From: Parcubacteria group bacterium Athens0714_12
GTDB lineage: Bacteria; Patescibacteriota; Patescibacteriia; UBA2591; VMGY01
Direction: 5' to 3'
DNA length: 64,000 nucleotides
Assembly (NCBI GenBank): GCA_007378955.1
Contig: VMGY01000007.1
Span: 8,644 to 72,643 of the forward strand
Part shown: one piece after another, positions 7,902 to 57,503 of the stretch
How the letters are laid out: the number at the start of each line of letters is the position of its first letter
Position numbering within the stretch: position 1 is the first letter of the stretch
Notes under the pieces: model-generated
The model's database searches: none
What the model was told of the DNA's origin: nothing
The model's input: the letters and a program-made list of their open reading frames with translations, nothing else
Translations under genes and position numbers: made by a program

Positions 7902-8088
7902 GTAAAATCATTTTTGTATTTTTTATCGCGTTTTGAAAAGTTTATCTCAATTCTACGGTGTTTTGGGCTTATTGTCAATAATTTTCGCGTGCGAAATTAA
8001 TTTTTATTAAATCAAAAAGAATAGTTAAAAAAGACCCTTAAGCGGGCCTTTTTTAGTTTTTAAAAACAAATTCGGCGTTATAATTACC

Positions 8089-8156
8089 TTGAATTACGAA
8101 ATAGAGTGACCCCGAAAGAGGAGGGGGTTTGTGAAAAAACGCGTTTCGTAATTCAA
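8089..8156. repeat. inverted repeat ttgaattacgaaa ... tttcgtaattcaa (13-bp arms, 42-nt spacer); member of a family with a second, larger copy at 48608-48740
   Basis: Read directly; lies between the tRNA cluster and the 3' end of pilT. Confidence 0.55.
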
Positions 8157-8186
8157 AATAATTAAGTTTCGTCGATTTATAAAAAT

Positions 8187-9236
8187 TTATTTCAATTCCT
8201 GCGGATTGAACATATAGGCTAAAGCAATTTGCTTGTCAATTAATTTTTCACTGACGAGCCTTTTTAAATCTTGGTCCATACTGACCATACCTTCCTTAGC
8301 GGAAGTTTGAATCACGGCTTTTATTTGGGAAATTTTATTTTCCCTGATTAAATTTCCTACGGCCGGAGTGTTGATTAAAATTTCCCGCGAGGCGATTCGG
8401 CCATTGTCAATTCTGGGCAATAATTGCTGGGAAATCACTCCTTGCAGGGAAATGGATAATTGCAATCTAACTTGAGTTTGCTGGTGAGGAGGAAAAACAT
8501 CAATAATTCTGTCTATGGTTTGGGAAGCGTTTTGAGTGTGCAGAGTGGCTAAAATCAAATGCCCTGTTTCCGCTAAAGTCAAAGCAGTGCCGATAGTTTC
8601 CAAATCGCGCATTTCGCCGACCATAATTACATTCGGGTCCTCTCTGACTACATGTTTTAAAGCATCTCCAAAAGAGAGTATATCACTTCCTAATTGGCGC
8701 TGGCTGATGATGCTTTTTTTAGGAAGAAAAACATATTCAATCGGGTCTTCCATAGTAACTATATGGCATGAGCGTTCTTCATTGATTAAATTTATCATTG
8801 CCGCCAGAGAAGTGGATTTTCCGCAGCCAGTCGGTCCGGTGATTAAAACCAGCCCTTGATTTAAGCGGGCTAATTTATAAGCGATTTTAGGCATTAAAAT
8901 TTCTTCCATATTAGGAAGAGAAGGAAGGATAACTCTCGCCGCTAAAGCCAAATTGCTTTTTTCCCAATAAACATTTATTCTGAATCTGGCTATCCCGTCT
9001 GATTGGTATGAAGTGTCTAATTCTCTCCGAGCTATTAATTTTTCTTTTTCTTGCGAGGTCAGGATGGAAAAAATTATTTCTTGAATCGTGTCTTTGGTCA
9101 GAATATTAATTTTGTCAATTTCTTTCAATTGCCCGTCAATTCTTAAAACAGGCGGCTTGCCGACTATTAAATGAACGTCAGAAGCTTTATTTTGAGCGGC
9201 AATTTTGAAAATCTCGTTGAGGTTTAAATTTTTCAT
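8187..9236 (-). CDS. pilT: type IV pilus retraction ATPase PilT
   Basis: 349 aa; Walker A GPTGCGKST, Asp box and His box; PilT-like N-terminus ASDVHL. Confidence 0.88.
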   Translation of the reverse strand: MKNLNLNEIFKIAAQNKASDVHLIVGKPPVLRIDGQLKEIDKINILTKDTIQEIIFSILTSQEKEKLIARRELDTSYQSDGIARFRINVYWEKSNLALAARVILPSLPNMEEILMPKIAYKLARLNQGLVLITGPTGCGKSTSLAAMINLINEERSCHIVTMEDPIEYVFLPKKSIISQRQLGSDILSFGDALKHVVREDPNVIMVGEMRDLETIGTALTLAETGHLILATLHTQNASQTIDRIIDVFPPHQQTQVRLQLSISLQGVISQQLLPRIDNGRIASREILINTPAVGNLIRENKISQIKAVIQTSAKEGMVSMDQDLKRLVSEKLIDKQIALAYMFNPQELK

Positions 9237-9443: not shown

Positions 9444-10967
9444 ATGACAATTTTAGAATTTTTGTTTATTTTAGTAATTTTTGCGTTAAGCGTTATTATT
9501 GGTTACAATTTGCGAAGATTAATTGCTTCTAAAAAAGCTCTCTCCGCTGAAATCAGGGCGGAAAAATTAGTTTCTGAAGCAAAAGAAAAGCAAAAGGAAA
9601 TTTTATTTCAAGCCAAGGAAAAAGCTCTTAAATTATTAGAAGAAGCGGAAAAAGAAGAACAAAAAAGGAGAAGAGAATTAAATTATCTCCAGCAAAGATT
9701 ATCAAAGAGAGAATCTCTTTTTGACCAGAAATTGTTGGATTTGGAAAACAAACAGCAGCAGCTTTACGACAAGGCTGATAAAATAGAAAAATTAAAACAG
9801 GAAATTCAGGAGATAAAAAATGAACAGTCTGATAAATTGGAAAAAATCGCTAATTTTTCTAAAGAAGAAGCCAAAAAAGTCTTATTGGAAAACGTGGAAA
9901 AGGAAATTAAAGAGGAAATTGCTCAGAGAATAAGAAAGTTAGAAAGCCAATCGCAGGAAGAACTTGAAAAAAAGGCAAAACATTTATTAAGTTTGGCAAT
10001 AGAAAGATGTTCCACTTCCCACGCGGCCGAAACTACGACCAGCTTGCTTAGCATTCCTTCTGATGAAATGAAAGGAAGGATTATCGGCCGGGAAGGGAGA
10101 AATATAAAAGCCATAGAACAGTTGACTGGCGTGGAAATTATCGTTGATGACACGCCCGAAGCGATTTTAATTTCCGCTTTTAATCCTATCCGCCGCCAAG
10201 TGGCTAAAAAAGCTTTAGAAAAATTAATTTTAGACGGCAGAATTCATCCCGGCAGAATTGAAGAAAAGGTGGAAGAAGCGAAAAAAGAATTAGCTTTGGA
10301 AATAAAAAAAGCCGGCGAGGAAGCGGCGTATGAATTAGGCATTGCCGGTTTAGACCCAAAACTCATTCAGATCGTCGGAAGATTAAAATATAGAACCAGC
10401 TATGGACAAAATGTTTTGCAGCATAGCATAGAAGTGGCTCATTTATCCGCTCTTTTGGCCGGAGAATTAGGCGCCAATGTCAGCATTGCCAAAAAGGCCG
10501 GATTTTTGCATGATATCGGCAAAGCAATAGACCAGGAGACAGAAGGGACCCATCCGGAATTGGGCGCGGAAATAGCAAAAAAATTCAATCTTTCAGAAGA
10601 AATTATCGCGCCGATTTTAACTCACCATCAGGATAATCCGCCAACTTTGGAAGCGATTATCGTCAAATCAGCTGACGCGGTTTCAGGCGCTCGTCCGGGA
10701 GCGAGAAGGGATTCGTACGAGCAATACATAAAACGTTTGGAGGAATTAGAAAATTTGGCTAAAACTTTTGATGGCGTGGAGAGAGTTTACGCCATCCAGG
10801 CAGGCAGAGAAGTAAGGGTTTTTGTGACTCCTTCTAAAATTGACGACGCGCAAGCTTTGAAATTATCCCGCCAAATAGCCAACAAAATAGAACAAGAGCT
10901 GAAATATCCGGGCGAAATAAAAGTCGCGGTTATCAGGGAAACAAGAGTAATTGAGTACGCAAGATAA
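9444..10967 (+). CDS. rny: ribonuclease Y
   Basis: N-terminal TM helix, coiled coil, KH domain (KGRIIGREGRNIKAIE), HD domain (HDIGKA). Confidence 0.9.
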   Translation: MTILEFLFILVIFALSVIIGYNLRRLIASKKALSAEIRAEKLVSEAKEKQKEILFQAKEKALKLLEEAEKEEQKRRRELNYLQQRLSKRESLFDQKLLDLENKQQQLYDKADKIEKLKQEIQEIKNEQSDKLEKIANFSKEEAKKVLLENVEKEIKEEIAQRIRKLESQSQEELEKKAKHLLSLAIERCSTSHAAETTTSLLSIPSDEMKGRIIGREGRNIKAIEQLTGVEIIVDDTPEAILISAFNPIRRQVAKKALEKLILDGRIHPGRIEEKVEEAKKELALEIKKAGEEAAYELGIAGLDPKLIQIVGRLKYRTSYGQNVLQHSIEVAHLSALLAGELGANVSIAKKAGFLHDIGKAIDQETEGTHPELGAEIAKKFNLSEEIIAPILTHHQDNPPTLEAIIVKSADAVSGARPGARRDSYEQYIKRLEELENLAKTFDGVERVYAIQAGREVRVFVTPSKIDDAQALKLSRQIANKIEQELKYPGEIKVAVIRETRVIEYAR

Positions 10968-10981
10968 TTATTTATAATTTT

Positions 10982-11782
10982 ATGAATTTAAGAGTTTTAA
11001 TCTTCGGCGATGTGATGGGAGGAATCGGCAGAAAAGCGATAGCCAAAATATTGCCTAAATTAAAAAAAGAGCTTAAGCCGGATTTAATCATCGCTAACGC
11101 GGAAAATATCGCTCATGGCAAAGGCATTACCCAAAAAACTTTGGAAGAATTGAAAAAAGCCGGAGTGGATTTTTTTACTTCCGGCGACCATGTCTTTGAT
11201 AAAAAAGAAATCATTCCGGTTTTGGAGGATAAAAATTCTCCTCTTATCAGGCCGGCGAATTATCCGCCGCTTGCTTCCGGCTTTGGCTATAAAATAGTTG
11301 AAATCGGCATAAGAAAAATTTTGATGATAAATTTAATTGGCCGGGTTTTTATGAAAGGCGACTATGACTGCCCTTTCAGAAAATTCGATCAGATTTTAGA
11401 AGAAACAAAAAATGAAAAATTGAACGCGGTGATTGTGGATTTTCATACCGAAGCGACTTCGGAAATAAGGGCTTTTAGTTTTTATGCTGATGGCAGAGCA
11501 AGTATAGTGTTTGGAACCCACACTCATGTTCCTACATCCGACAATCAGATTTTAGCGGAAGGAACCGGGTATGTTTCAGATGTGGGAATGGCGGGAGCGA
11601 AAGATTCTGTTTTGGGCGTGGACAAAGAGAATATTATCAAAAATTTTTTAACCCAAATGCCGTTTGAACATCAAATTCCTGAAACCGGCAAAGCGATTAT
11701 CAACGCGATTTTTTTAGAAATCAATCCTAAAAATAAAAAAGCGGAAAAAATCAAAAGGGTTGATAAAGAAGTGGAAATTTAA
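10982..11782 (+). CDS. ymdB: YmdB-like metallophosphoesterase (2',3'-cyclic-nucleotide phosphodiesterase family), conserved partner of RNase Y
   Basis: VLIFGDVMG...ANAEN...GHG motifs; synteny rny-ymdB as in Firmicutes. Confidence 0.8.
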   Translation: MNLRVLIFGDVMGGIGRKAIAKILPKLKKELKPDLIIANAENIAHGKGITQKTLEELKKAGVDFFTSGDHVFDKKEIIPVLEDKNSPLIRPANYPPLASGFGYKIVEIGIRKILMINLIGRVFMKGDYDCPFRKFDQILEETKNEKLNAVIVDFHTEATSEIRAFSFYADGRASIVFGTHTHVPTSDNQILAEGTGYVSDVGMAGAKDSVLGVDKENIIKNFLTQMPFEHQIPETGKAIINAIFLEINPKNKKAEKIKRVDKEVEI

Positions 11783-11805
11783 TAGAATTTAAAAAATAAT
11801 TTGTC

Positions 11806-11890
11806 AGATTAAAATTTTGGTTACAGCCCGCCTTCGTCCTTCGCTTTCAGTCCAGGTTTCGGCGGGCGCTCAATTTTGTAACCAAATTAA
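11806..11890 (+). promoter_or_regulatory. nested GC-rich hairpin (outer tttggttaca/tgtaaccaaa, inner gcccgcc/ggcgggc) between ymdB and hup; terminator and/or 5'-leader structure of hup
   Basis: Inverted repeats read from the sequence; strong RBS (aagggggtg) 8 nt before the hup ATG. Confidence 0.4.
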
Positions 11891-11927
11891 AAATTTGGAC
11901 AAAATTGGCGAAAGGGGGTGAAAATAA

Positions 11928-12200
11928 ATGAATAAAACTGAATTATGCGATAAAATTTCCGAGAAAGAGAATTTGCCTCGAGCCCAAGCTAATAGAGTGG
12001 TGGAATTAATTATTGAAACTATTATTTCCACTTTAAAATCAGGCGATGAAGTGGCTTTAACCGGTTTTGGCACTTTTTCCGCCAAAAATAGAGCCGCCCG
12101 CCAGGGCGTTAATCCTAAAACAGGAGAAAAACTTCAAATTCCGGCGATGACCGTGCCTAAATTCAAAGCAGGCAAATTTTTGAAAGACGCGTTGAAATAA
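11928..12200 (+). CDS. hup: DNA-binding protein HU
   Basis: 90 aa; GFGTF...R.GRNP.TGE beta-arm signature. Confidence 0.92.
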   Translation: MNKTELCDKISEKENLPRAQANRVVELIIETIISTLKSGDEVALTGFGTFSAKNRAARQGVNPKTGEKLQIPAMTVPKFKAGKFLKDALK

Positions 12201-12227
12201 AATAGATATTCATTTCAGATAAAAGCT

Positions 12228-15579: not shown

Positions 15580-17325
15580 ATGAAAGAATCAAAATTAAAA
15601 AAATATCAGCAGAAAAGAAAATTTGAAATCACGCCGGAGCCGGAAGGAAAGATAGAAAAAAGCGAATTAAAAAGGTTTGTCGTCCATAAACACCAAGCTC
15701 GGCATTTGCACTATGATTTTCGTCTGGAAATGGAGGGTGTCTTAAAATCTTGGGCCGTGCCCAAAGGAGTGCCGGAGAAGCCAAATGTAAAAAGACTTGC
15801 CATTGAAGTAGAAAATCATCCGGTTTGTTTGGCTCCTTTTACAAAAGTTAATGCCCCGGGAGGCGAAAAAAGTATTAGAAAAAATTTTTCTAAAATTTTT
15901 TCTTATAATTTTCAAAATAGGAAAGTAGAATCTAAAAAAATAACAGCTTTTTCTAAAAGAGAAATAAATAATGATGAAATTACTTTATATTTTCATCAGG
16001 GAAAACCATTAAAAAAATTGTGTTGTACCCTGAATCATGAAATATTTGCTCCTCAAGGTAAAAAACAAGCATTTCAACTTAAAAAAGATGATTTTATTTT
16101 TATTTTAAAAGAGACATTTCAAAAAAGGAAGAAGGAGTTACTTTTAGGTATGCTTTTGGGAGATGCGGGATTAGAAAGCAACGGTTCTTACAGTAACACA
16201 GCCATTGTTTCTTTTACCCACTCTATTTCTCAAAGAGATTATTTACTTACAAAATGCAGACTGCTTAATTTAAAATTTCATTTTCAGAATTATCCTTCAA
16301 AAATACAAAGAATTAAAAATTATACTGCCTACTTTAAACCATCAATCAGGGCGGTGAGTAAGACTTACCCTTTTCTTTATGATCTTTATCTACTTTGTTA
16401 TAAAAACGGAAGAAAAACTCTTACTAAAGAATGGCTAAATCAATTAAGTGAAGTTTCTCTGGCTTATTTTTATCTCGACGACGGCAGTTTATTAAAAGAT
16501 AAAAATAAAATGAACATTCATGCTATAGAGCTATCTACCCAAGGATTTACAAAGAAAGAACAGTTATTACTTAAAGAAGTGATAGAAAAAAAATTTGGTC
16601 TTAAGACTAATATATATCGAATAAATAGTGGAAGCGGTTGGAGGTTAAGAATTTCTAGCGTAAAAAAATTTTTTTCTTTAATTTCCCCATGGATTCCTTT
16701 AAAAATTATGGATTATAAGATAGGTAAGCATTGTCCTGTTTGTGGAAATTCAGTCCCTGGTTTTAAAAATCATTTTTGTTCTTATTGTTTGTTGAATTAT
16801 TTAAGAAAATTAAAATATCCTTCTTATGCCGATTATTGTAGGTTGAGGTATTATGAGAAAAGAGGTGGCGTTGCCCCAAAAACTTTTCAGAATTATTTTG
16901 GAAGTTGGGCTAACGCCATTAAATTAGCAAAAGAAAATAAATTAGTAGTTTCAGGCCAGAGGGGGAGTAAAGTAAAAGAAATTAAAAATGAAAGAATGAA
17001 AAAGGATATAGGAATAGCCAAAATCAGAGAGATTAGAAAAAAATGGAATCCCGAAAGAAAGTATGCACATGATATTCAAGTTAAGGATAATCATAATTTT
17101 TTTGCAAATGGAGTTTTGGTAGGAAATTCTTACATTGATTTTTTTGGCGTTATTCCCGAAGGTTCTTACGGCGCCGGCAACGTGGAAATTTGGGACAAGG
17201 GAGAATATGAATTATTGGAGAAAAGCAAAAAAACGATTAAATTCAGATTAAAGGGCGAAAAATTAAAAGGCGAATATATTTTGGTTTTAATGAAAGAAAA
17301 TAACTGGCTGATTTATAAATTGTAA
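15580..17325 (+). CDS. stand-alone LigD-type 3'-phosphoesterase (PE) domain protein interrupted by an intein (host exteins 82 + 65 aa)
   Basis: Extein N: RFVVHKHQARHLHYDFRLEMEGVLKSWAVPKG...VENHPV; extein C: SYIDFFGVIPEGSYGAGNVEIWDKGEY - LigD PE domain signatures. Confidence 0.75.
   Translation: MKESKLKKYQQKRKFEITPEPEGKIEKSELKRFVVHKHQARHLHYDFRLEMEGVLKSWAVPKGVPEKPNVKRLAIEVENHPVCLAPFTKVNAPGGEKSIRKNFSKIFSYNFQNRKVESKKITAFSKREINNDEITLYFHQGKPLKKLCCTLNHEIFAPQGKKQAFQLKKDDFIFILKETFQKRKKELLLGMLLGDAGLESNGSYSNTAIVSFTHSISQRDYLLTKCRLLNLKFHFQNYPSKIQRIKNYTAYFKPSIRAVSKTYPFLYDLYLLCYKNGRKTLTKEWLNQLSEVSLAYFYLDDGSLLKDKNKMNIHAIELSTQGFTKKEQLLLKEVIEKKFGLKTNIYRINSGSGWRLRISSVKKFFSLISPWIPLKIMDYKIGKHCPVCGNSVPGFKNHFCSYCLLNYLRKLKYPSYADYCRLRYYEKRGGVAPKTFQNYFGSWANAIKLAKENKLVVSGQRGSKVKEIKNERMKKDIGIAKIREIRKKWNPERKYAHDIQVKDNHNFFANGVLVGNSYIDFFGVIPEGSYGAGNVEIWDKGEYELLEKSKKTIKFRLKGEKLKGEYILVLMKENNWLIYKL
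15826..17127 (+). mobile_element. intein (434 aa) with LAGLIDADG homing endonuclease domain and a C-terminal Cys-rich zinc-finger-like segment
   Basis: Begins at Cys (CLAPF), ends ...DNHNFFANGVLVGN followed by +1 Ser; two LAGLIDADG motifs (LLGMLLGDAGLES, LAYFYLDDGSL); in-frame within the PE-domain gene. Confidence 0.8.
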
Positions 17326-17398: not shown

Positions 17399-17473
17399 GC
17401 GGGTATCGTATAGCGGCTATTATATCTCCTTGCCAAGGAGAAGATACGGGTTCGACTCCCGTTACCCGCTCCA
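17399..17473 (+). tRNA. tRNA-Gly (anticodon GCC)
   Basis: Manual fold: acceptor gcgggta/tacccgc, anticodon stem tctcc/ggaga with loop ttGCCaa, T-loop ttcgact, encoded CCA. Confidence 0.85.
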
Positions 17474-17600
17474 AGATTTGACCTATAAGTCAATTTTACT
17501 CTACTTGACTGTGGATAAGAATTTACTGACCTTTTGGTCTTTTTTTATTGCGTAATTATTTGCAAGAAAAAAGCTATTTGATAGAATTAAAAGAATAGCT

Positions 17601-18455
17601 ATGAAAAATATCATAATATCAAAACCAAAGAATGACTCAGTTATCGCTCAATTAAGTTCGCTTTATAACACCTTTAAAAACGTTAGTTTTGGCGACAATT
17701 TAGAATTTAATTTGTCATTATTGGATTGGGTTTGTCCTTCATTAATATTGCCGATAAGCGCCTATATAAATAGTACTCGGAGCAGTTATAAAACAGATAA
17801 TTGCGGCATTAAGTCTTATTTGGAAAAAATAAGCTTTCCGCGAGGCGTAAATTCTATTTCTTTATTTCAATATAGAACTCAGAAATATAAAAGCTATATC
17901 CCGATAAGTGTCTTAAAAAAAGAATCAGGAATTGAAAGGGAAAGATTAGAATCATTGTTTTCAGAAAAAATTTATGAAACACTTGGCAATGTGCCAGGAG
18001 CGCAAAGCGCCGTAGTTTACCCCATATCAGAATTAGCAACTAATATTTTTGAGCATAGCAAAAAAGATTCAGGTTTTATTTTTGGGCAATTTTATCCCAA
18101 GAAAAATTATCTTGATATCTGCATAGTAGATTGCGGAAGAGGATTTGCCGCGGCTTATAAAGAAGAAAAGAATTTAAATTTGACGGACGCGGAAGCTATT
18201 AACCAGGCAATATTAGGCAACTCGGTTAAAAAAGACAGAGAAAGAGGATATGGAATAAGAACTTCAAAAAATGTGGTGTGTCACGCGCTAAAAGGAGGGA
18301 GTTTTGTTTTAATTTCTGGTTCTTGCGCGTTGCTTTCCACGGGAAAAGCGGAAAAGTTAGTATCTTTACCTAAATTTTATTGGCAAGGAACTATTATTGC
18401 TTATAGGATACCTAAACCATTGGGACCTATTGATATTTCCGGATATTATGAGTAA
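17601..18455 (+). CDS. GHKL (histidine-kinase-like) ATPase domain protein, hypothetical
   Basis: 284 aa; N-box-like ELATNIFEHS and G1-box-like VDCGRGF; no transmitter/HisKA region. Confidence 0.45.
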   Translation: MKNIIISKPKNDSVIAQLSSLYNTFKNVSFGDNLEFNLSLLDWVCPSLILPISAYINSTRSSYKTDNCGIKSYLEKISFPRGVNSISLFQYRTQKYKSYIPISVLKKESGIERERLESLFSEKIYETLGNVPGAQSAVVYPISELATNIFEHSKKDSGFIFGQFYPKKNYLDICIVDCGRGFAAAYKEEKNLNLTDAEAINQAILGNSVKKDRERGYGIRTSKNVVCHALKGGSFVLISGSCALLSTGKAEKLVSLPKFYWQGTIIAYRIPKPLGPIDISGYYE

Positions 18456-18506
18456 TATTAATTAAAATCAATTTTGCGGCGTAAATACTATAATAACTAT
18501 AAATTT

Positions 18507-18881
18507 ATGAAAATCAAAAAAAGTCAAAATTTAACTAAAATCAATATAGCTAATCTAATAGCCCCGATTATAAGTTCCCGGAGCATAGCTGATATATTAG
18601 AAAAAGAAATTAAAGGAGTTGATGCTAAATCAATAAATTTAGATTTTAGCAAGGTTAAATTTATTTCTCGTTCAGCCGCTCACGCTCTGCTTTTATTGAA
18701 GGAAAAAATTGAAACTAAAACTTTTAATAAAAAAGAAGTAAATTTTGTAAATGCCAATAATGATATTGCCGAAATGCTTCGCATTGTAGCCGCGAATAGG
18801 GCATTTCCTAAAGATAAAAAATTCCAATTTAATCCAAAAAAAGTCAGTATAAATTCTTTGTTAAAAAAGGCAGTGATATAG
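18507..18881 (+). CDS. STAS-like (DUF4325-like) small protein, hypothetical; likely partner of the upstream GHKL protein
   Basis: about 124 aa from ATG 18507 (the track's 18474 start is a TTG); INLDFSKVKFISRSAAHALL resembles STAS-like DUF4325; 18-nt gap to the upstream gene. Confidence 0.4.
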   Translation: MKIKKSQNLTKINIANLIAPIISSRSIADILEKEIKGVDAKSINLDFSKVKFISRSAAHALLLLKEKIETKTFNKKEVNFVNANNDIAEMLRIVAANRAFPKDKKFQFNPKKVSINSLLKKAVI

Positions 18882-19039: not shown

Positions 19040-19066
19040 AAAAAATTCCGGATTATCCGGAATTTT
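19040..19066. terminator. bidirectional hairpin (aaaattccgga tta tccggaatttt) between convergent genes
   Basis: Perfect 11-bp palindrome flanked by A/T runs on both sides. Confidence 0.6.
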
Positions 19067-19286
19067 TGTTTTGATTTCCTTTAAAACAGTCACACCCCTC
19101 CCATTTTTTGTATTTCATTTTTTCTATGCAAGGATTTCCATTGTTGCAATACCAAGCTCTGGCGCTCTCTATATCCATTAGGCAAAAACTTTGGAAATAA
19201 TTGTTGCATTTCGATGGTTCTTTAGTAAGACTTTCCTCATAACTTTCCCTTTCAAACCTACCTAATTCATTAGGATTTTTATGCAT
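19053..19286 (-). CDS. small Cys-rich hypothetical protein (6 Cys in the C-terminal half)
   Basis: 77 aa ORF, no recognisable domain. Confidence 0.35.
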   Translation of the reverse strand: MHKNPNELGRFERESYEESLTKEPSKCNNYFQSFCLMDIESARAWYCNNGNPCIEKMKYKKWEGCDCFKGNQNKNSG

Positions 19287-22930: not shown

Positions 22931-23923
22931 TTAGTTAAATCTCCTCAACCTCCTTTGTTTTTTTGATTCTTTATATTTACTATATTCATTGATGCCAAAA
23001 TCTTTTAATCGCTCCCAATTATTTTTAGTTCGCAGTTTGGACAGCGCTTTTTTAATGTTTTGCTCGACCCGTTGCCAGCTGATGGAGAGGTCTTCGCTAA
23101 TTTTTTTTAAAGTTCGTTCCAAGTAAAAATACTCTCTAAGACAACATTGCTCCGTCTTAGACAACTTGCTTTCCAAAAAAATTTTTTCTAATCCTTTTTT
23201 TAGTTGGAATTGAAAAATATTTTTTTCTACAACCTTGTCTGTTTGGAAGATTGAAATTTCTCCGGTTAATGTTCCGTTGGGAATTTTTTCATAAAGCCGC
23301 ATCCCGTCATTATCTGGATATGTTTGGCTGTCCAAGGAAAATAATCGATTTTCAAAATTCATTACCTCGGTGATGTTTTCAAATCTTTTATTTGTCCAGC
23401 GCAGGCTTTTTTTTATTTCTTCCTCTGTCGGCTCTCTCATTAAAATGTTTTTTAGCCTATTTTTACTTTTTTTAAATTTAGCTATGCAATCGCAAGCATA
23501 GACAGGAATTCGTATCGCTTTGCCATTTTTTATTGAATATTCCATGCCCTGCTTGATTTCCCACCAAAGATAGGTGCTATATCGGCAACCCCTTAAATAA
23601 TTAAATTTTTTAGTACCACTTATTAACCCAATCATTCCTTCTTGAAATAAATCGTCCGCATCCATTGATGGATCATAGAGTTTATTCAGGCAGTGATTAG
23701 AAATATTTATGACTAATTTAAAATTCTTAGCCATAATTTGACCGAGTATTTTTTTCCTCTTTTTCTCATTTTTAGTTTTTTTAAAAGCTTTAAGCAAAGA
23801 AAACATAATTTCGCCCAAAATTTCTTTAGCTTTTTTTTCCGCTGGCGTGGCGGGATGCAAAATTTTTACTGAATTATTACTTGATTCATAAGCAATACTG
23901 TTTAAATTCAACATCTTCAACAC
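22931..23923 (-). CDS. RNA polymerase sigma factor, sigma-70 family
   Basis: Region 2 (DADDLFQEGMIGLISGTKKF) and region 4.2 HTH (SISWQRVEQNIKKALSKLR). Confidence 0.75.
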   Translation of the reverse strand: MLKMLNLNSIAYESSNNSVKILHPATPAEKKAKEILGEIMFSLLKAFKKTKNEKKRKKILGQIMAKNFKLVINISNHCLNKLYDPSMDADDLFQEGMIGLISGTKKFNYLRGCRYSTYLWWEIKQGMEYSIKNGKAIRIPVYACDCIAKFKKSKNRLKNILMREPTEEEIKKSLRWTNKRFENITEVMNFENRLFSLDSQTYPDNDGMRLYEKIPNGTLTGEISIFQTDKVVEKNIFQFQLKKGLEKIFLESKLSKTEQCCLREYFYLERTLKKISEDLSISWQRVEQNIKKALSKLRTKNNWERLKDFGINEYSKYKESKKQRRLRRFN

Positions 23924-26622: not shown

Positions 26623-27744
26623 ATGAAAAAAGATAAATTTAAAAAAATTTTAAAAGAAATATTGTCTTCGGCGGGAATAAAAATCAATGGTCGCAATCCT
26701 TGGGACATAAAAGTTCGTCACGAAAAATTTTATCAAAGAGTTTTAGTTCAGGGCTCTCTCGGCCTTGGCGAATCTTATATGGATAAATGGTGGGATTGCC
26801 AGAAAATTGACCAATTGTTTGAACGGATTTTTATTTTTCAATTGGAAGATAAAATTAAAAAAAATTGGGCGTTGATTTTTGAACTTTTAATAGCGAAGAT
26901 TTTTAACAGGCAATCAAAAAAGAGAGCGTTTCAAGTCGGGGAGAAGCATTATAATTTAGGCAACGAGCTCTATGAAAATATGCTTGATAAGCGGATGGTT
27001 TATACTTGCGCTTACTGGAAAGAGGCGCGTAATCTTGACCATGCCCAGGAAAATAAATTAGATTTAGTCTGCCGCAAATTAGGATTGCGAGAAGGAATGA
27101 AAATACTTGATATCGGCTGCGGTTGGGGGAGTTTTGCCAAATATGCCGCGGAAAAATACAAAGTTGAAGTAGTCGGGGTTACCGTCTCCGAGGAGCAAGT
27201 AAAACTCGGAAAAAAATTATGCCGAGGATTGCCGGTGGAAATCAGGCTACAAGATTACAGGGATATAAATGATAAGTTTGACCACGTTGTTTCTTTGGGC
27301 ATGTTTGAGCATGTTGGTTGTAAAAATTACCGGATATATATGGAAGTTGTCGAGCGATGCTTAAAGGACGAGGGATTGTTTTTATTGCATACCATTGGCG
27401 GGAACAAATCAAGAAATTTTGGCGAGGCATGGGTGGATAAATACATTTTTCCCAATTCAATGCTGCCTTCAATCAAGCAGATAGGATTATCAACCGAAGG
27501 ATTGTTTGTGATGGAAGATTGGCATAATTTTAGCGCTGATTACGACAAAACATTAATGGCTTGGTATGAAAATTTTGATAAAAATTGGCATAAGATAAAA
27601 TCAAATTACGACGAAAGATTTTGCAGGATGTGGAAATATTATTTATTGATAAGCGCCGGTGCGTTCCGTTCAAGGAATAATCAGTTATGGCAAATTGTTT
27701 TTTCCAAGAAAGGCGTTAGAGGAGGATATAAATCTATACGTTAA
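26623..27744 (+). CDS. cfa: cyclopropane-fatty-acyl-phospholipid synthase family SAM-dependent methyltransferase
   Basis: LDIGCGWGSFAKYAAEKY SAM motif, CFA-synthase-like length and C-terminal region. Confidence 0.8.
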   Translation: MKKDKFKKILKEILSSAGIKINGRNPWDIKVRHEKFYQRVLVQGSLGLGESYMDKWWDCQKIDQLFERIFIFQLEDKIKKNWALIFELLIAKIFNRQSKKRAFQVGEKHYNLGNELYENMLDKRMVYTCAYWKEARNLDHAQENKLDLVCRKLGLREGMKILDIGCGWGSFAKYAAEKYKVEVVGVTVSEEQVKLGKKLCRGLPVEIRLQDYRDINDKFDHVVSLGMFEHVGCKNYRIYMEVVERCLKDEGLFLLHTIGGNKSRNFGEAWVDKYIFPNSMLPSIKQIGLSTEGLFVMEDWHNFSADYDKTLMAWYENFDKNWHKIKSNYDERFCRMWKYYLLISAGAFRSRNNQLWQIVFSKKGVRGGYKSIR

Positions 27745-57157: not shown

Positions 57158-57503
57158 TGGTGGAGATGATGGGAATTTAACCCATATCCAAAAAAGAGAG
57201 AGAAAAACTTCTACCAACGTAGTTTGATTTAAGTTTTCGGATTAGAAGTAGAAATCAAACAAAAATTCTTTCCAATCCAAACCTATTTTATTTCAGCAGC
57301 TTAAATTAGGTTTTTTAAGTTGCCTAATCCTATAAATATAATATCTAATTTCTTAATAGGAATAGGAAATTAAACAGCGACTTGCTTTACGCAGTCGCGT
57401 ATGCATAAGCGTTGTTTTTGGCACTTATGTTTTTAGCGGCTTTACGAACCGCCCAACGATTGGCCATTTTTGCCTCTGTTTTTTGTCGATTTAGATCATC
57501 CCC
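57158..57503 (-). ncRNA. ssrA: tmRNA (SsrA); predicted tag peptide (A)KNNAYAYATA* (tentative)
   Basis: 5' end GGGGATGATCTAAATCGAC, tRNA-like 3' end ...GGGTTAAATTCCCATCATCTCCACCA pairing with the 5' end, internal ORF GCC AAA AAC AAC GCT TAT GCA TAC GCG ACT GCG TAA; adjacent to smpB. Confidence 0.75.

Follow-up and report, generated by a model that had tools for sequence, protein, structure and literature searches.

Two adjacent genes, A and B, are encoded on the forward strand of the 64,000-nt stretch of the Parcubacteria group bacterium Athens0714_12 genome analyzed here (contig VMGY01000007.1; this whole stretch is referred to below as the window). Gene A (17601..18455) is an open reading frame (ORF) specifying a 284-aa protein of the VapK/CapK type. 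Gene B (18507..18881), identified both as an ORF and in gene calls, specifies a 124-aa VapS-like STAS/DUF4325 protein. The intergenic gap is 51 nt when B is started at the ATG at 18507. The 18-nt gap given in the original prediction is obtained with an in-frame TTG farther upstream, at 18474, and neither the N-termini of homologs nor public gene calls support that start. A protein with 100% identity to the product of gene A, Athens101410_728, is known from Parcubacteria group bacterium Athens1014_10. With 272 homologs of A (E ≤ 1e-3; nearly all 280–286 aa long) and 71 homologs of B, both genes are real and not chance ORFs.

A tRNA-Gly(GCC) gene (17399..17473, forward strand; ARAGORN; Rfam 61.3 bits) lies 127 nt upstream of A. 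Just upstream of A, a consensus scan finds a promoter-like site, TTGCAA-16-TAGAAT with an extended-10 TG (17559..17587, forward strand), to be read as a pattern match, such sites being no more numerous in this region than the shuffled expectation. On the 3' side, the A-B operon is followed by a convergent 77-aa ORF and then by SpoIID and Wzy_C genes. A terminator scan places a bidirectional intrinsic-terminator-like hairpin (19041..19067, assigned to neither strand), with a 12-bp stem (AAAAATTCCGGA/TCCGGAATTTTT), an A-run before it, and a T-run after it, between the operon and the 77-aa ORF. This is the only good bidirectional hairpin here, and it lies 160 nt past the stop codon of B, not directly after it as noted earlier. 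Flanking genes encode RNase Y, YmdB, Sua5, a LigD_N-intein protein, SpoIID, Wzy_C, a sigma-70 family protein (22931-23923, 4 kb downstream of the pair), an amidase, and CMAS. A defense-island context in the window was considered and rejected, the neighbors being housekeeping genes; the neighborhood survey suggested earlier for defense islands likewise found mostly housekeeping flanks at related loci. Integration of an island at the tRNA gene was rejected too: no att-like repetition of the 3' end of the tRNA gene was found downstream, nor was a GC anomaly or an integrase. The upstream position of the tRNA gene, to which attention had been drawn, is correct but only weakly general, as a tRNA gene adjoins the pair in 9 of 74 related loci, with differing identities and an enrichment that is mild at most. 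The tRNA gene is therefore probably context and not a part of the A-B module.

The AF2 model of the A protein (pLDDT 90.7, pTM 0.90) consists of an alpha/beta N-domain followed by a Bergerat fold. The N-terminal part (17601..17984, forward strand; aa 1–128), modeled as beta-alpha-beta-alpha-beta-alpha, is a predicted STAS-like (pseudo-STAS) sensor domain. It contains W43 (17727-17729), conserved in at least 90% of A homologs, and the invariant P46 (17736-17738). In a direct profile-profile comparison with narrow alignments, the B family did not match the N-terminus of A; the STAS-like assignment is supported instead by comparisons involving phrog_3364, VapK (hhalign, see below), and VapS. The phrog_3364 profile matches A at E 4e-34, and its N-terminal part is cross-matched by B. 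Positions 21–72 of the A-family HMM align with the STAS domain of VapS (13 bits; E 8e-6 in a four-sequence test). The best reading of these comparisons and of the model is that A comprises a degenerate N-terminal STAS-like domain that would pack onto a GHKL Ser-kinase domain with an intact catalytic site.

The GHKL (Bergerat-fold) kinase/ATPase domain occupies aa 129–284 (17985..18452, forward strand), an assignment supported by Pfam at the family level and by Foldseek. Against the single A protein, the Pfam model HATPase_c_2 scores 20.4 bits, under its cut-off of 27.4. Among 46 homologs of A, 35 match HATPase_c and 22 match HATPase_c_2. Foldseek matches include the ATP domains of CheA P4, WalK, GyrB, and Hsp90. 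The ATP site is recognizable from an N-box with E144, N148, and H152 (ELATNIFEH; 18030-18056), a G1 box D177xGxG (DCGRG; 18129-18143), and a G2 segment R215-G216-Y-G218 (18243-18254); a basic hairpin, K167-K168 (18099-18104), lies between the first two boxes. All of these elements are on the forward strand, and the coordinates were checked. Residues E144, N148, H152, D177, G179, R215, G216, and G218 are invariant among 66 diverse relatives with a mean identity of 33%, and G181 is invariant within the close clade. Searches of solved-structure sequences with the A and B family profiles gave nothing useful.

The B protein, which includes the segment INLDFSKVKFISRSAAHALL, has its STAS core at aa 9–99. 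The Pfam STAS model scores 21.5 bits against the single protein, under the cut-off of 22.6, and matches 41 of 42 B homologs; STAS_2 matches 17 of the 42, and DUF4325 matches four. The AF2 model of B (pLDDT 78) retrieves RsbS, TM1442, stressosome, SLC26 STAS, and SpoIIAA structures in Foldseek, with the best E about 0.01. A Ser54-Arg55-Ser56 (SRS) motif (18666..18674, forward strand), placed where STAS helix alpha-2 begins, is a candidate phospho-acceptor site. In a gap-free alignment, with CapS aligned by eye, Arg55 falls at the position of SpoIIAA S58, CapS S54, and VapS S48. All three residues of the motif are invariant across the 42 homologs, so that an invariant arginine at the VapS S48 position is flanked by two equally invariant serines. 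In partners of distant relatives, serine at the S56 position is kept in every case sampled (TRS, TPS, TQS, SRS). The SRS motif is also found in gp42 of phage BF1-TP2, psiM100 ORFC, and an 88-aa ORF of Halobaculum; the SRS clade spans Patescibacteria, a phage of Bacteroides, and, on the archaeal side, a prophage and a haloarchaeal plasmid. The STAS core is followed by a C-terminal tail (FPKDKKFQFNPKKVSINSLLKKAVI; 18804..18878, forward strand; aa 100–124), in which F108, I115, and S117 are conserved in at least 90% of homologs and a terminal helix is predicted at 115–123 with low AF2 confidence. The partners of distant relatives have similar amphipathic tails at the C-terminus, a feature that is family-wide.

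Among 74 distinct Patescibacteria loci, all those that could be tested have B after A; the loci come from several lineages and show identities of 56–75% for A and 49–68% for B. An automated scan placed B directly after A in 91 of 93 cases, and the remaining cases were resolved to a partner by inspection. In five sampled distant relatives, a STAS partner directly follows the kinase as well. The A gene is split in one locus only (L094). The neighborhoods of the 74 loci are unrelated to one another. Neighboring ORFs were clustered with a minimum length of 80 aa out to 8 kb and of 35 aa out to 1.5 kb, and no conserved third gene emerged: no other family was found in more than 6 of the 74 loci, and the most recurrent neighbors, ribosomal rplJ/rplL or ABC ATPase genes, were each found in at most 6. 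Occasionally, Fic, Doc, and restriction genes neighbor the pair. A related genome contains a separate HTH-containing variant, a MerR-HTH protein with DUF4325 (L011, 11194-12226). Outside the Patescibacteria, the same pair is carried by a phage of Bacteroides, by the archaeal prophage psiM100, and by two plasmids, one haloarchaeal and one from Pseudomonas; it also occurs fused to an SF2 helicase. A scan of IMG/VR with the close-clade alignment returned no viral contigs.

The nearest characterized relatives of the pair are VapK/VapS and CapK/CapS. VapKSC is a toxin-antitoxin/anti-phage system of Escherichia sp. E4736, and CapK-CapS regulate CBASS, Bub, and Thoeris operons; both are DNA-damage-sensing kinase switches, wired to a repressor domain or a PIN toxin (Chambers et al., EMBO J 2026, PMC13373217). 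That the kinases act on a STAS serine is supported biochemically for CapK, and for VapK by mutant phenotypes and a predicted complex. Activation by ssDNA was demonstrated biochemically for CapK only, the case for VapK resting on an AF3 model and the phenotype of F54A. The residues contacting ssDNA are W68, K237, and K239 in CapK, with VapK F54 equivalent to CapK W68, and N218 of CapK is needed for activity (PMC13373217).

The A family aligns with VapK over both domains (hhalign probability 97.8%, E 9e-13, 247 columns; A 15–271, VapK 24–289). The A-family HMM scores 59 bits against VapK and 38 bits against CapK. BLASTP aligns A with VapK at 28% identity over 159 aa of the GHKL domain (E 1e-8). 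Signatures are held in common (NIFEHSK in A and NSFEHSK in VapK; YPKKN and FIKKN), and in the alignment W43, P46, and K167/K168 of A correspond to F54, P57, and K180/K181 of VapK. In position, K167/K168 also come close to CapK K237/K239, which suggests a positional equivalence. The likeness of B to its counterparts is slighter: hhalign finds a local match of 12–34 residues to VapS/CapS (E about 1e-3), and what B and VapS have in common is a short motif alone, in which VapS S48 aligns with Arg55.

Based on these comparisons, we consider it reasonably probable that A and B form a stand-alone kinase-substrate signaling pair of the CapK/CapS-VapK/VapS family, with a mechanism reconstructed by analogy. 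In its best reading, B is the cognate STAS/DUF4325 partner of A with a short C-terminal helix, similar to VapS. The architecture, the full-length homology to VapK, the conservation of the ATP site and of candidate ssDNA-contact residues, the strict co-occurrence of A and B, and the lack of a conserved third gene are observations; kinase activity on B, the acceptor residue, an ssDNA signal, and a role in stress or defense would follow from them by analogy only. Counted against the proposal are the weak similarity of B to VapS/CapS, the presence of R55, the lack of an effector near the pair, the housekeeping surroundings, and the fact that biochemical proof of activation by ssDNA concerns CapK alone.

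The following mechanism is proposed. A stress signal would activate A, most likely ssDNA held in the inter-domain groove by W43 and K167/K168. With ATP, A would then phosphorylate B close to the start of helix alpha-2, with S56 or S54 as the candidate acceptor. Phosphorylation of B would need such a serine neighboring R55, as the canonical phospho-serine position is an arginine. Phosphorylation may in turn switch the binding of B, via its STAS face and C-terminal tail, to a partner encoded away from the pair. As the pair comes with no PIN toxin and with no domain of the HTH or wHTH type, either its output must be exerted in trans or the kinase itself is the output.

The original prediction had recognized GHKL-ATPase motifs in A and a STAS/DUF4325-like segment in B, and both identifications hold at the family level, with invariant ATP-site residues in A. 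The outcomes named beforehand as decisive also favor it, since profile searches detect GHKL and STAS similarity and the pair is co-conserved. Its comparison with RsbW/RsbV was right as regards a GHKL Ser-kinase with a STAS partner, but not as regards a sigma switch (see below). The ATPase is indeed larger than RsbW, and the N-terminal STAS-like domain, which had gone unrecognized, explains the excess. The other suggestion made then, an accessory or defense-type two-gene module, comes closer than RsbW/RsbV.

The arginine at the phospho-serine position of SpoIIAA, CapS, and VapS raises a different possibility, namely that the kinase is the effector of a two-gene TA/abortive-infection module, with B serving as a non-phosphorylatable pseudo-substrate that keeps A inactive until a signal such as ssDNA frees A to phosphorylate targets of the host or phage. 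Such a module would be in keeping with the missing third gene, with an ATP site so fully conserved that catalysis must be retained, and with the occasional Fic, Doc, and restriction genes that adjoin the pair; it would also suit the moron-like insertion of the pair in psiM100, where ORFB/ORFC sit within the inserted fragment IFa, and its presence in a Bacteroides phage. We nevertheless regard it as unlikely. S54 and S56 are as invariant as R55, and the serine kept at the S56 position in all sampled partners fits a shifted acceptor. The conserved tail suggests that B binds something besides A, and a pseudo-substrate is without precedent among the characterized relatives. A related proposal concerns the SRS clade, which may constitute a self-sufficient two-gene system where B is a pseudo-substrate lock on a nucleic-acid-sensing effector kinase with host or invader targets. 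This proposal seems to us quite unlikely; if true, it would describe a new kinase-based abortive-infection or stress switch distributed across bacteria, archaea, and their viruses.

It could also be argued that A is not a protein kinase but a GHKL ATPase acting as a MORC- or GyrB-like conformational switch on nucleic acid, the ATPase cycle of which is modulated by B. The top Foldseek matches of A include GyrB and Hsp90 along with kinases, and neither SpoIIAB nor RsbW is among them. Moreover, there are SF2 helicases to which the module is fused: the metagenomic protein P0263 has DEAD/Helicase_C domains and a C-terminal VapK-like module, and its gene is followed by one for a 117-aa STAS partner. 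Residues 69–242 of A also match the N-terminus of the PADLOC model of DrmA (PDLC02567; positions 73–243 of 1750; E 1.6e-8). Against this stands the signature of A (E-x3-N-x3-H, DxGxG, T-D..ERGxG), which is of the HATPase_c_2 or Ser-kinase type. In the AF2 model, no transducer or S5 domain extends past the Bergerat fold, and the nearest characterized homologs, CapK and VapK, are experimentally supported STAS-serine kinases. An ATPase switch is therefore a very unlikely account of the pair.

In a classical partner switch, A would be an anti-sigma kinase like RsbW/SpoIIAB and B an antagonist like RsbV/SpoIIAA, controlling an alternative sigma factor of the host. The pair does resemble SpoIIAB-SpoIIAA and RsbW-RsbV, in which a single-domain STAS protein likewise partners a HATPase_c_2-type GHKL Ser-kinase, and the spacing of the E-x3-N-x3-H and DxGxG motifs in A is that of SpoIIAB. 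JGI labels some homologs as "anti-sigma regulatory factor" or "anti-anti-sigma factor." Besides the weak match to HATPase_c_2, there are weak matches to NCBIfam RsbW (A, 13.9 bits, E 0.026) and to the anti-sigma-antagonist model TIGR00377 (14.2 bits, E 0.029), but these scores are far under the curated cut-offs of 145 and 53.45, respectively. A sigma-70 family gene is located downstream in the window, and 9 of 74 loci have a sigma gene no more than 8 kb from the pair, perhaps 2–3 times the background. The distances of these sigma genes range from -5.7 to +6.3 kb, their types and strands are scattered, and they never share an operon with the pair, except possibly in L028; on these grounds the sigma-factor link was rejected. 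No PP2C phosphatase gene was seen in the annotated neighborhoods. Unlike RsbW and SpoIIAB, A possesses an additional N-terminal STAS-like domain and aligns over its full length with VapK instead, and unlike SpoIIAA and RsbV, B has SRS in place of the DSS phospho-motif. Archaea (psiM100/MTH315-316, Halobaculum) and phages have the pair too, and there a bacterial sigma factor is absent or irrelevant. Control of a sigma factor by this pair is thus highly improbable. Finally, decay of a VapKSC or CapKS system into a non-functional remnant that lost its effector would account for the missing toxin or HTH output, but it is essentially refuted by the conservation pattern, in which both genes are intact across the 74 loci (A being split only in L094) and the catalytic residues are invariant.

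This locus shows the sensor-substrate core of CapK/CapS and VapKSC in the form of a bare two-gene cassette lacking a cis-encoded output. This cassette is strongly conserved in the genome-reduced Patescibacteria and is common to phages, an archaeal prophage, and plasmids. If the pair works as a kinase-substrate module as proposed, the kinase-STAS core would be a portable sensing module, the outputs of which can be supplied in trans, and the mechanism would reach archaea and viruses. The experimental question would become which target the tail-bearing STAS protein binds, and whether its SRS motif is an acceptor or a pseudo-substrate. The proposal also hints at what phrog_3364 and many DUF4325 proteins may do, as well as ORFB/ORFC (MTH315/316) of psiM100 IFa, which have long lacked an explanation.

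The pair can be compared with several known systems. Unlike DrmA of DISARM, A lacks an SF2 helicase domain, and its surroundings contain no DISARM genes. The pair has direct homologs in gp43/gp42 of Bacteroides phage BF1-TP2 and ORFB/ORFC (MTH315/MTH316) of the Methanothermobacter prophage psiM100. As with A and B, an "ATP-binding protein" is followed by a "DUF4325 domain-containing protein" with an FxSRSFA motif and a C-terminal tail. These homologs differ in having 27–35% identity to A and in being accessory (moron-like), virus-borne genes.

The CapK/CapS and VapK/VapS systems are closer in organization. Like the CapK and VapK kinases, A joins a STAS(-like) domain at its N-terminus to a GHKL domain at its C-terminus, and its catalytic asparagine, N148, corresponds to CapK N218. 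Unlike CapK, A has no N-terminal HTH and begins directly with the STAS-like domain. Unlike CapS, B ends in the 25-aa tail instead of a C-terminal wHTH, and no HTH was matched by Pfam in either protein; lacking the wHTH, B cannot be a DNA-binding repressor of the CapS kind. Nor does an immune operon follow the pair, in contrast to the CapKS arrangement. The supplementary datasets of PMC13373217, including the list of VapKSC systems (Dataset EV3), contain no Patescibacteria. Unlike in VapKSC, no gene for a VapC (PIN) toxin follows the pair at this locus or at related loci. A VapC homolog, searched for with the 9Z7O sequence by tblastn and phmmer, was not found in the window or in 97 loci, and no PIN domain was matched in genes downstream of the phage, archaeal, and plasmid relatives. 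In other respects, VapK and VapS are built like A and B. VapK is a STAS+GHKL protein of about 300 aa without an HTH, and its gene precedes the STAS gene. VapS, which matches DUF4325 at E 3e-17, is a DUF4325/STAS protein of 116 aa, compared with 124 aa for B, and like B it carries a short C-terminal helix.

Gene A, at 17601-18455 on the + strand, encodes a protein of 284 aa, and gene B (18507-18881, +) one of 124 aa. A tRNA-Gly(GCC) gene lies upstream (17399-17473). The ATG start of B is backed by homolog N-termini and public gene calls, which favour it over a TTG at 18474; the gap between the genes is therefore 51 nt. The 18 nt of the original prediction came from the longer TTG-initiated ORF. 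The bidirectional hairpin assigned there as terminator exists and is strong, but it lies 160 nt past the stop of B (19041-19067). The motifs quoted are present at verified coordinates. A and B are 100% identical to Athens101410_728 and Athens101410_729, respectively, of Parcubacteria group bacterium Athens1014_10. Convergent with B is a cysteine-rich ORF of 77 aa (19053-19286, - strand) that public records list as a gene; no Pfam family matches it, and it is not kept beside the pair in other loci.

Taken alone, both proteins fall just under Pfam thresholds (A, HATPase_c_2, 20.4 bits vs 27.4; B, STAS, 21.5 bits vs 22.6). Among their homologs, HATPase_c is matched by 35 of 46 and HATPase_c_2 by 22 of 46 for A, and STAS by 41, STAS_2 by 17 and DUF4325 by 4 of 42 for B. 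These matches confirm the predicted GHKL-type A and STAS/DUF4325-type B, and at family level both assignments are secure. The confident AlphaFold2 model of A (pLDDT 90.7, pTM 0.90) places an alpha/beta domain at the N-terminus (aa 1 to about 128) and a Bergerat ATP-binding fold behind it; Foldseek matches this fold to the ATP domains of CheA P4, WalK, GyrB, and Hsp90. Structural matches of the B model (pLDDT 78) are RsbS, TM1442, stressosome, SLC26 STAS, and SpoIIAA. A, too, begins with a STAS-like domain. Its secondary-structure order agrees with that of B in the models, and positions 21-72 of the A-family HMM align to the STAS domain of VapS; phage family phrog_3364 is matched by A over its full length and by B in its N-terminal part. 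Across 66 diverse relatives (mean identity 33%), the ATP-site residues E144, N148, H152, D177, G179, R215, G216, and G218 are invariant, as are P101 and G263. It is the invariant GHKL ATP site that leads one to expect an active enzyme.

A set of 5.8 billion proteins holds 272 homologs of A at E<=1e-3, nearly all of 280-286 aa, with identities of 56-75% among the 120 matches listed. Wherever a source is named, it is a lineage of Patescibacteria (Parcubacteria, Paceibacterota, Magasanikbacteria, Komeilibacteria). An exhaustive HMMER scan with the A family gives 1353 cluster representatives at E<=1e-3. The sampled loci comprise 6 from genomes, 80 from metagenomes, and several long contigs; in the 74 whose A sequences differ from one another, a B homolog lies downstream on the same strand wherever sequence suffices. 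An automated count finds A then B in 91 of 93 testable loci, and the rest have a STAS/DUF4325 partner on inspection. The original prediction would have failed had the two genes not been co-conserved elsewhere; they are, in all testable loci. In one metagenomic locus (L094, 8001-8844), A appears as two ORFs (8001-8279, 8299-8844) before an intact B, owing either to a frameshift that made A a pseudogene or to misassembly.

The two-gene arrangement also recurs on several replicons that are unrelated to one another. Bacteroides phage BF1-TP2 encodes gp43 ('ATP-binding protein') and gp42 ('DUF4325 domain-containing protein'), and a conjugative Pseudomonas plasmid an 'ATP-binding protein' and a 'STAS-like domain-containing protein'. 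In Methanothermobacter prophage psiM100, the arrangement consists of ORFB and ORFC, similar to MTH315/MTH316, within inserted fragment IFa; ORFC is a DUF4325 protein (E 6.5e-7). The long-unexplained IFa insert (locus L015, 3628-6420) thus holds homologs of A and B; ORFD (492 aa), next after ORFC, has no Pfam match. On a Halobaculum plasmid, the partner of the A homolog is an unannotated 88-aa ORF. This ORF (H. marinum NZ_CP119990.1, about 67167-67433; L016 5823-6089) bears the partner motif IDLINVEFVSRSVADEL and is a STAS/DUF4325 gene missed in public annotation. Distant relatives of A have a 111-126-aa gene immediately downstream in 5/5 sampled. One of the five, metagenomic protein P0263 (L099, 1-4171), is an SF2 helicase of 1266 aa (DEAD/Helicase_C) with a VapK-like STAS-GHKL module fused at its C-terminus, in agreement with the match of A to the N-terminus of the PADLOC DrmA model; a 117-aa STAS partner with the SRS motif (Ser54-Arg55-Ser56 in B) follows. 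A 769-kb Patescibacteria contig (L011; L062 lies on it too) holds another pair of a different kind (11194-12226), 2.3 kb downstream from the main one; its 245-aa MerR-type HTH protein, a weak A-profile match (25.7 bits), and 97-aa DUF4325 protein look like a CapK/CapS-like HTH-bearing variant.

No third gene recurs with the pair: other families occur in at most 6 of 74 loci, also when ORFs down to 35 aa are counted within 1.5 kb. The flanks are mostly housekeeping genes that vary from locus to locus; in the window they include RNase Y, YmdB, Sua5, an intein-containing LigD_N gene, SpoIID, Wzy_C, a sigma-70 family gene, amidase, and CMAS. A tRNA adjoins the pair in 9/74 loci, with differing identities, and the window locus shows neither an att-like repeat nor an integrase nor a GC anomaly. 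Partial synteny of the window (9444-12200 and 26623-27744) with a 210-kb Paceibacterota contig (L012), with RNase Y and HU upstream and a CMAS-type methyltransferase downstream, suggests vertical inheritance inside a subclade, though flanks vary overall. Just upstream of the tRNA (15580-17325, +), the DNA ligase D 3'-phosphoesterase gene is split by an intein bearing a homing endonuclease of the LAGLIDADG type (Pfam: LAGLIDADG_2, Intein_splicing, and LigD_N in two stretches). Elsewhere the window holds an ordinary tmRNA gene (57158-57503, -; tag peptide AKNNAYAYATA) and four more tRNA genes.

In a gap-free alignment, the phospho-serines SpoIIAA S58, CapS S54, and VapS S48 correspond to invariant Arg55 of B, with the likewise invariant S54 and S56 on either side. 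Partners of the distant relatives carry [ST]-[RPQ]-S here, which makes the serine aligned with S56 the one conserved throughout. The best-supported model, which we consider fairly probable, is that A-B works as a kinase-substrate switch of the CapK/VapK type that stands alone. What the analysis shows is the architecture, the homology, conserved catalytic and sensor residues, strict co-occurrence, and the lack of a cis effector; phosphotransfer, the residue that accepts the phosphate, the signal, and the biological role we infer. The GHKL kinase would be activated by a signal, for which ssDNA bound between the two domains of A is the likeliest candidate. A would then phosphorylate B on S56 or S54, where helix alpha-2 begins, and this may alter the binding of B via its STAS face and conserved C-terminal helix. 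Arg55 could alternatively mark B as a pseudo-substrate in a two-gene system akin to toxin-antitoxin pairs, in which the kinase would be the effector; this is unlikely. That A is a non-kinase GHKL ATPase switch is possible at rather long odds. The RsbW/RsbV-like reading was loosely right in its GHKL-STAS pairing, but a classical sigma-factor partner switch is disfavoured as highly improbable: the pair is found in archaea and viruses and has no linkage to sigma genes, which lie within 8 kb in 9/74 loci at inconsistent positions. Conservation all but rules out a decayed remnant.

ssDNA activates CapK (HTH-STAS-GHKL), which phosphorylates CapS, a STAS-wHTH repressor, on a conserved serine; for VapK (STAS-GHKL), the proposed substrate is VapS, a STAS protein whose C-terminal region is short, and phosphorylation of VapS would free the PIN toxin VapC; VapK F54 is equated with CapK W68, the ssDNA-stacking residue (Chambers et al., EMBO J 2026, PMC13373217). 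The sequences of all five, from the supplementary files of that paper, were compared directly. Both domains of VapK align with the A-family profile (hhalign 97.8%, E 9e-13, 247 columns); the A-family HMM scores 59 bits against VapK and 38 bits against CapK, and BLASTP aligns the GHKL domains of VapK and A at 28% identity (E 1e-8). W43 and P46 of A align with VapK F54 and P57, NIFEHSK with NSFEHSK, and K167/K168 with K180/K181, at about CapK K237/K239. VapS clearly belongs to DUF4325 (E 3e-17); it has its architecture and a V-x-LDFS-x-VK motif in common with B, and little other sequence likeness. VapKSC has VapC, whereas the A-B pair does not: tblastn and phmmer find no VapC homolog in the window or 97 related loci, and no PIN domain occurs among the downstream genes of phage, archaeal, and plasmid relatives. 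CapK and CapS have HTH and wHTH domains, whereas none was found in A or B, respectively, and no immune operon lies downstream. Patescibacteria are absent from the VapKSC list of PMC13373217. The pair brings no new principle, and the sharp question that it poses is what output the kinase-STAS core drives. It belongs to the recently defined CapK/VapK-CapS/VapS kind as a distinct variant, marked by the lack of an effector, by the SRS motif, and by a clade that takes in Patescibacteria, phages, and archaea, and it carries a just-described immune sensing module into new lineages.
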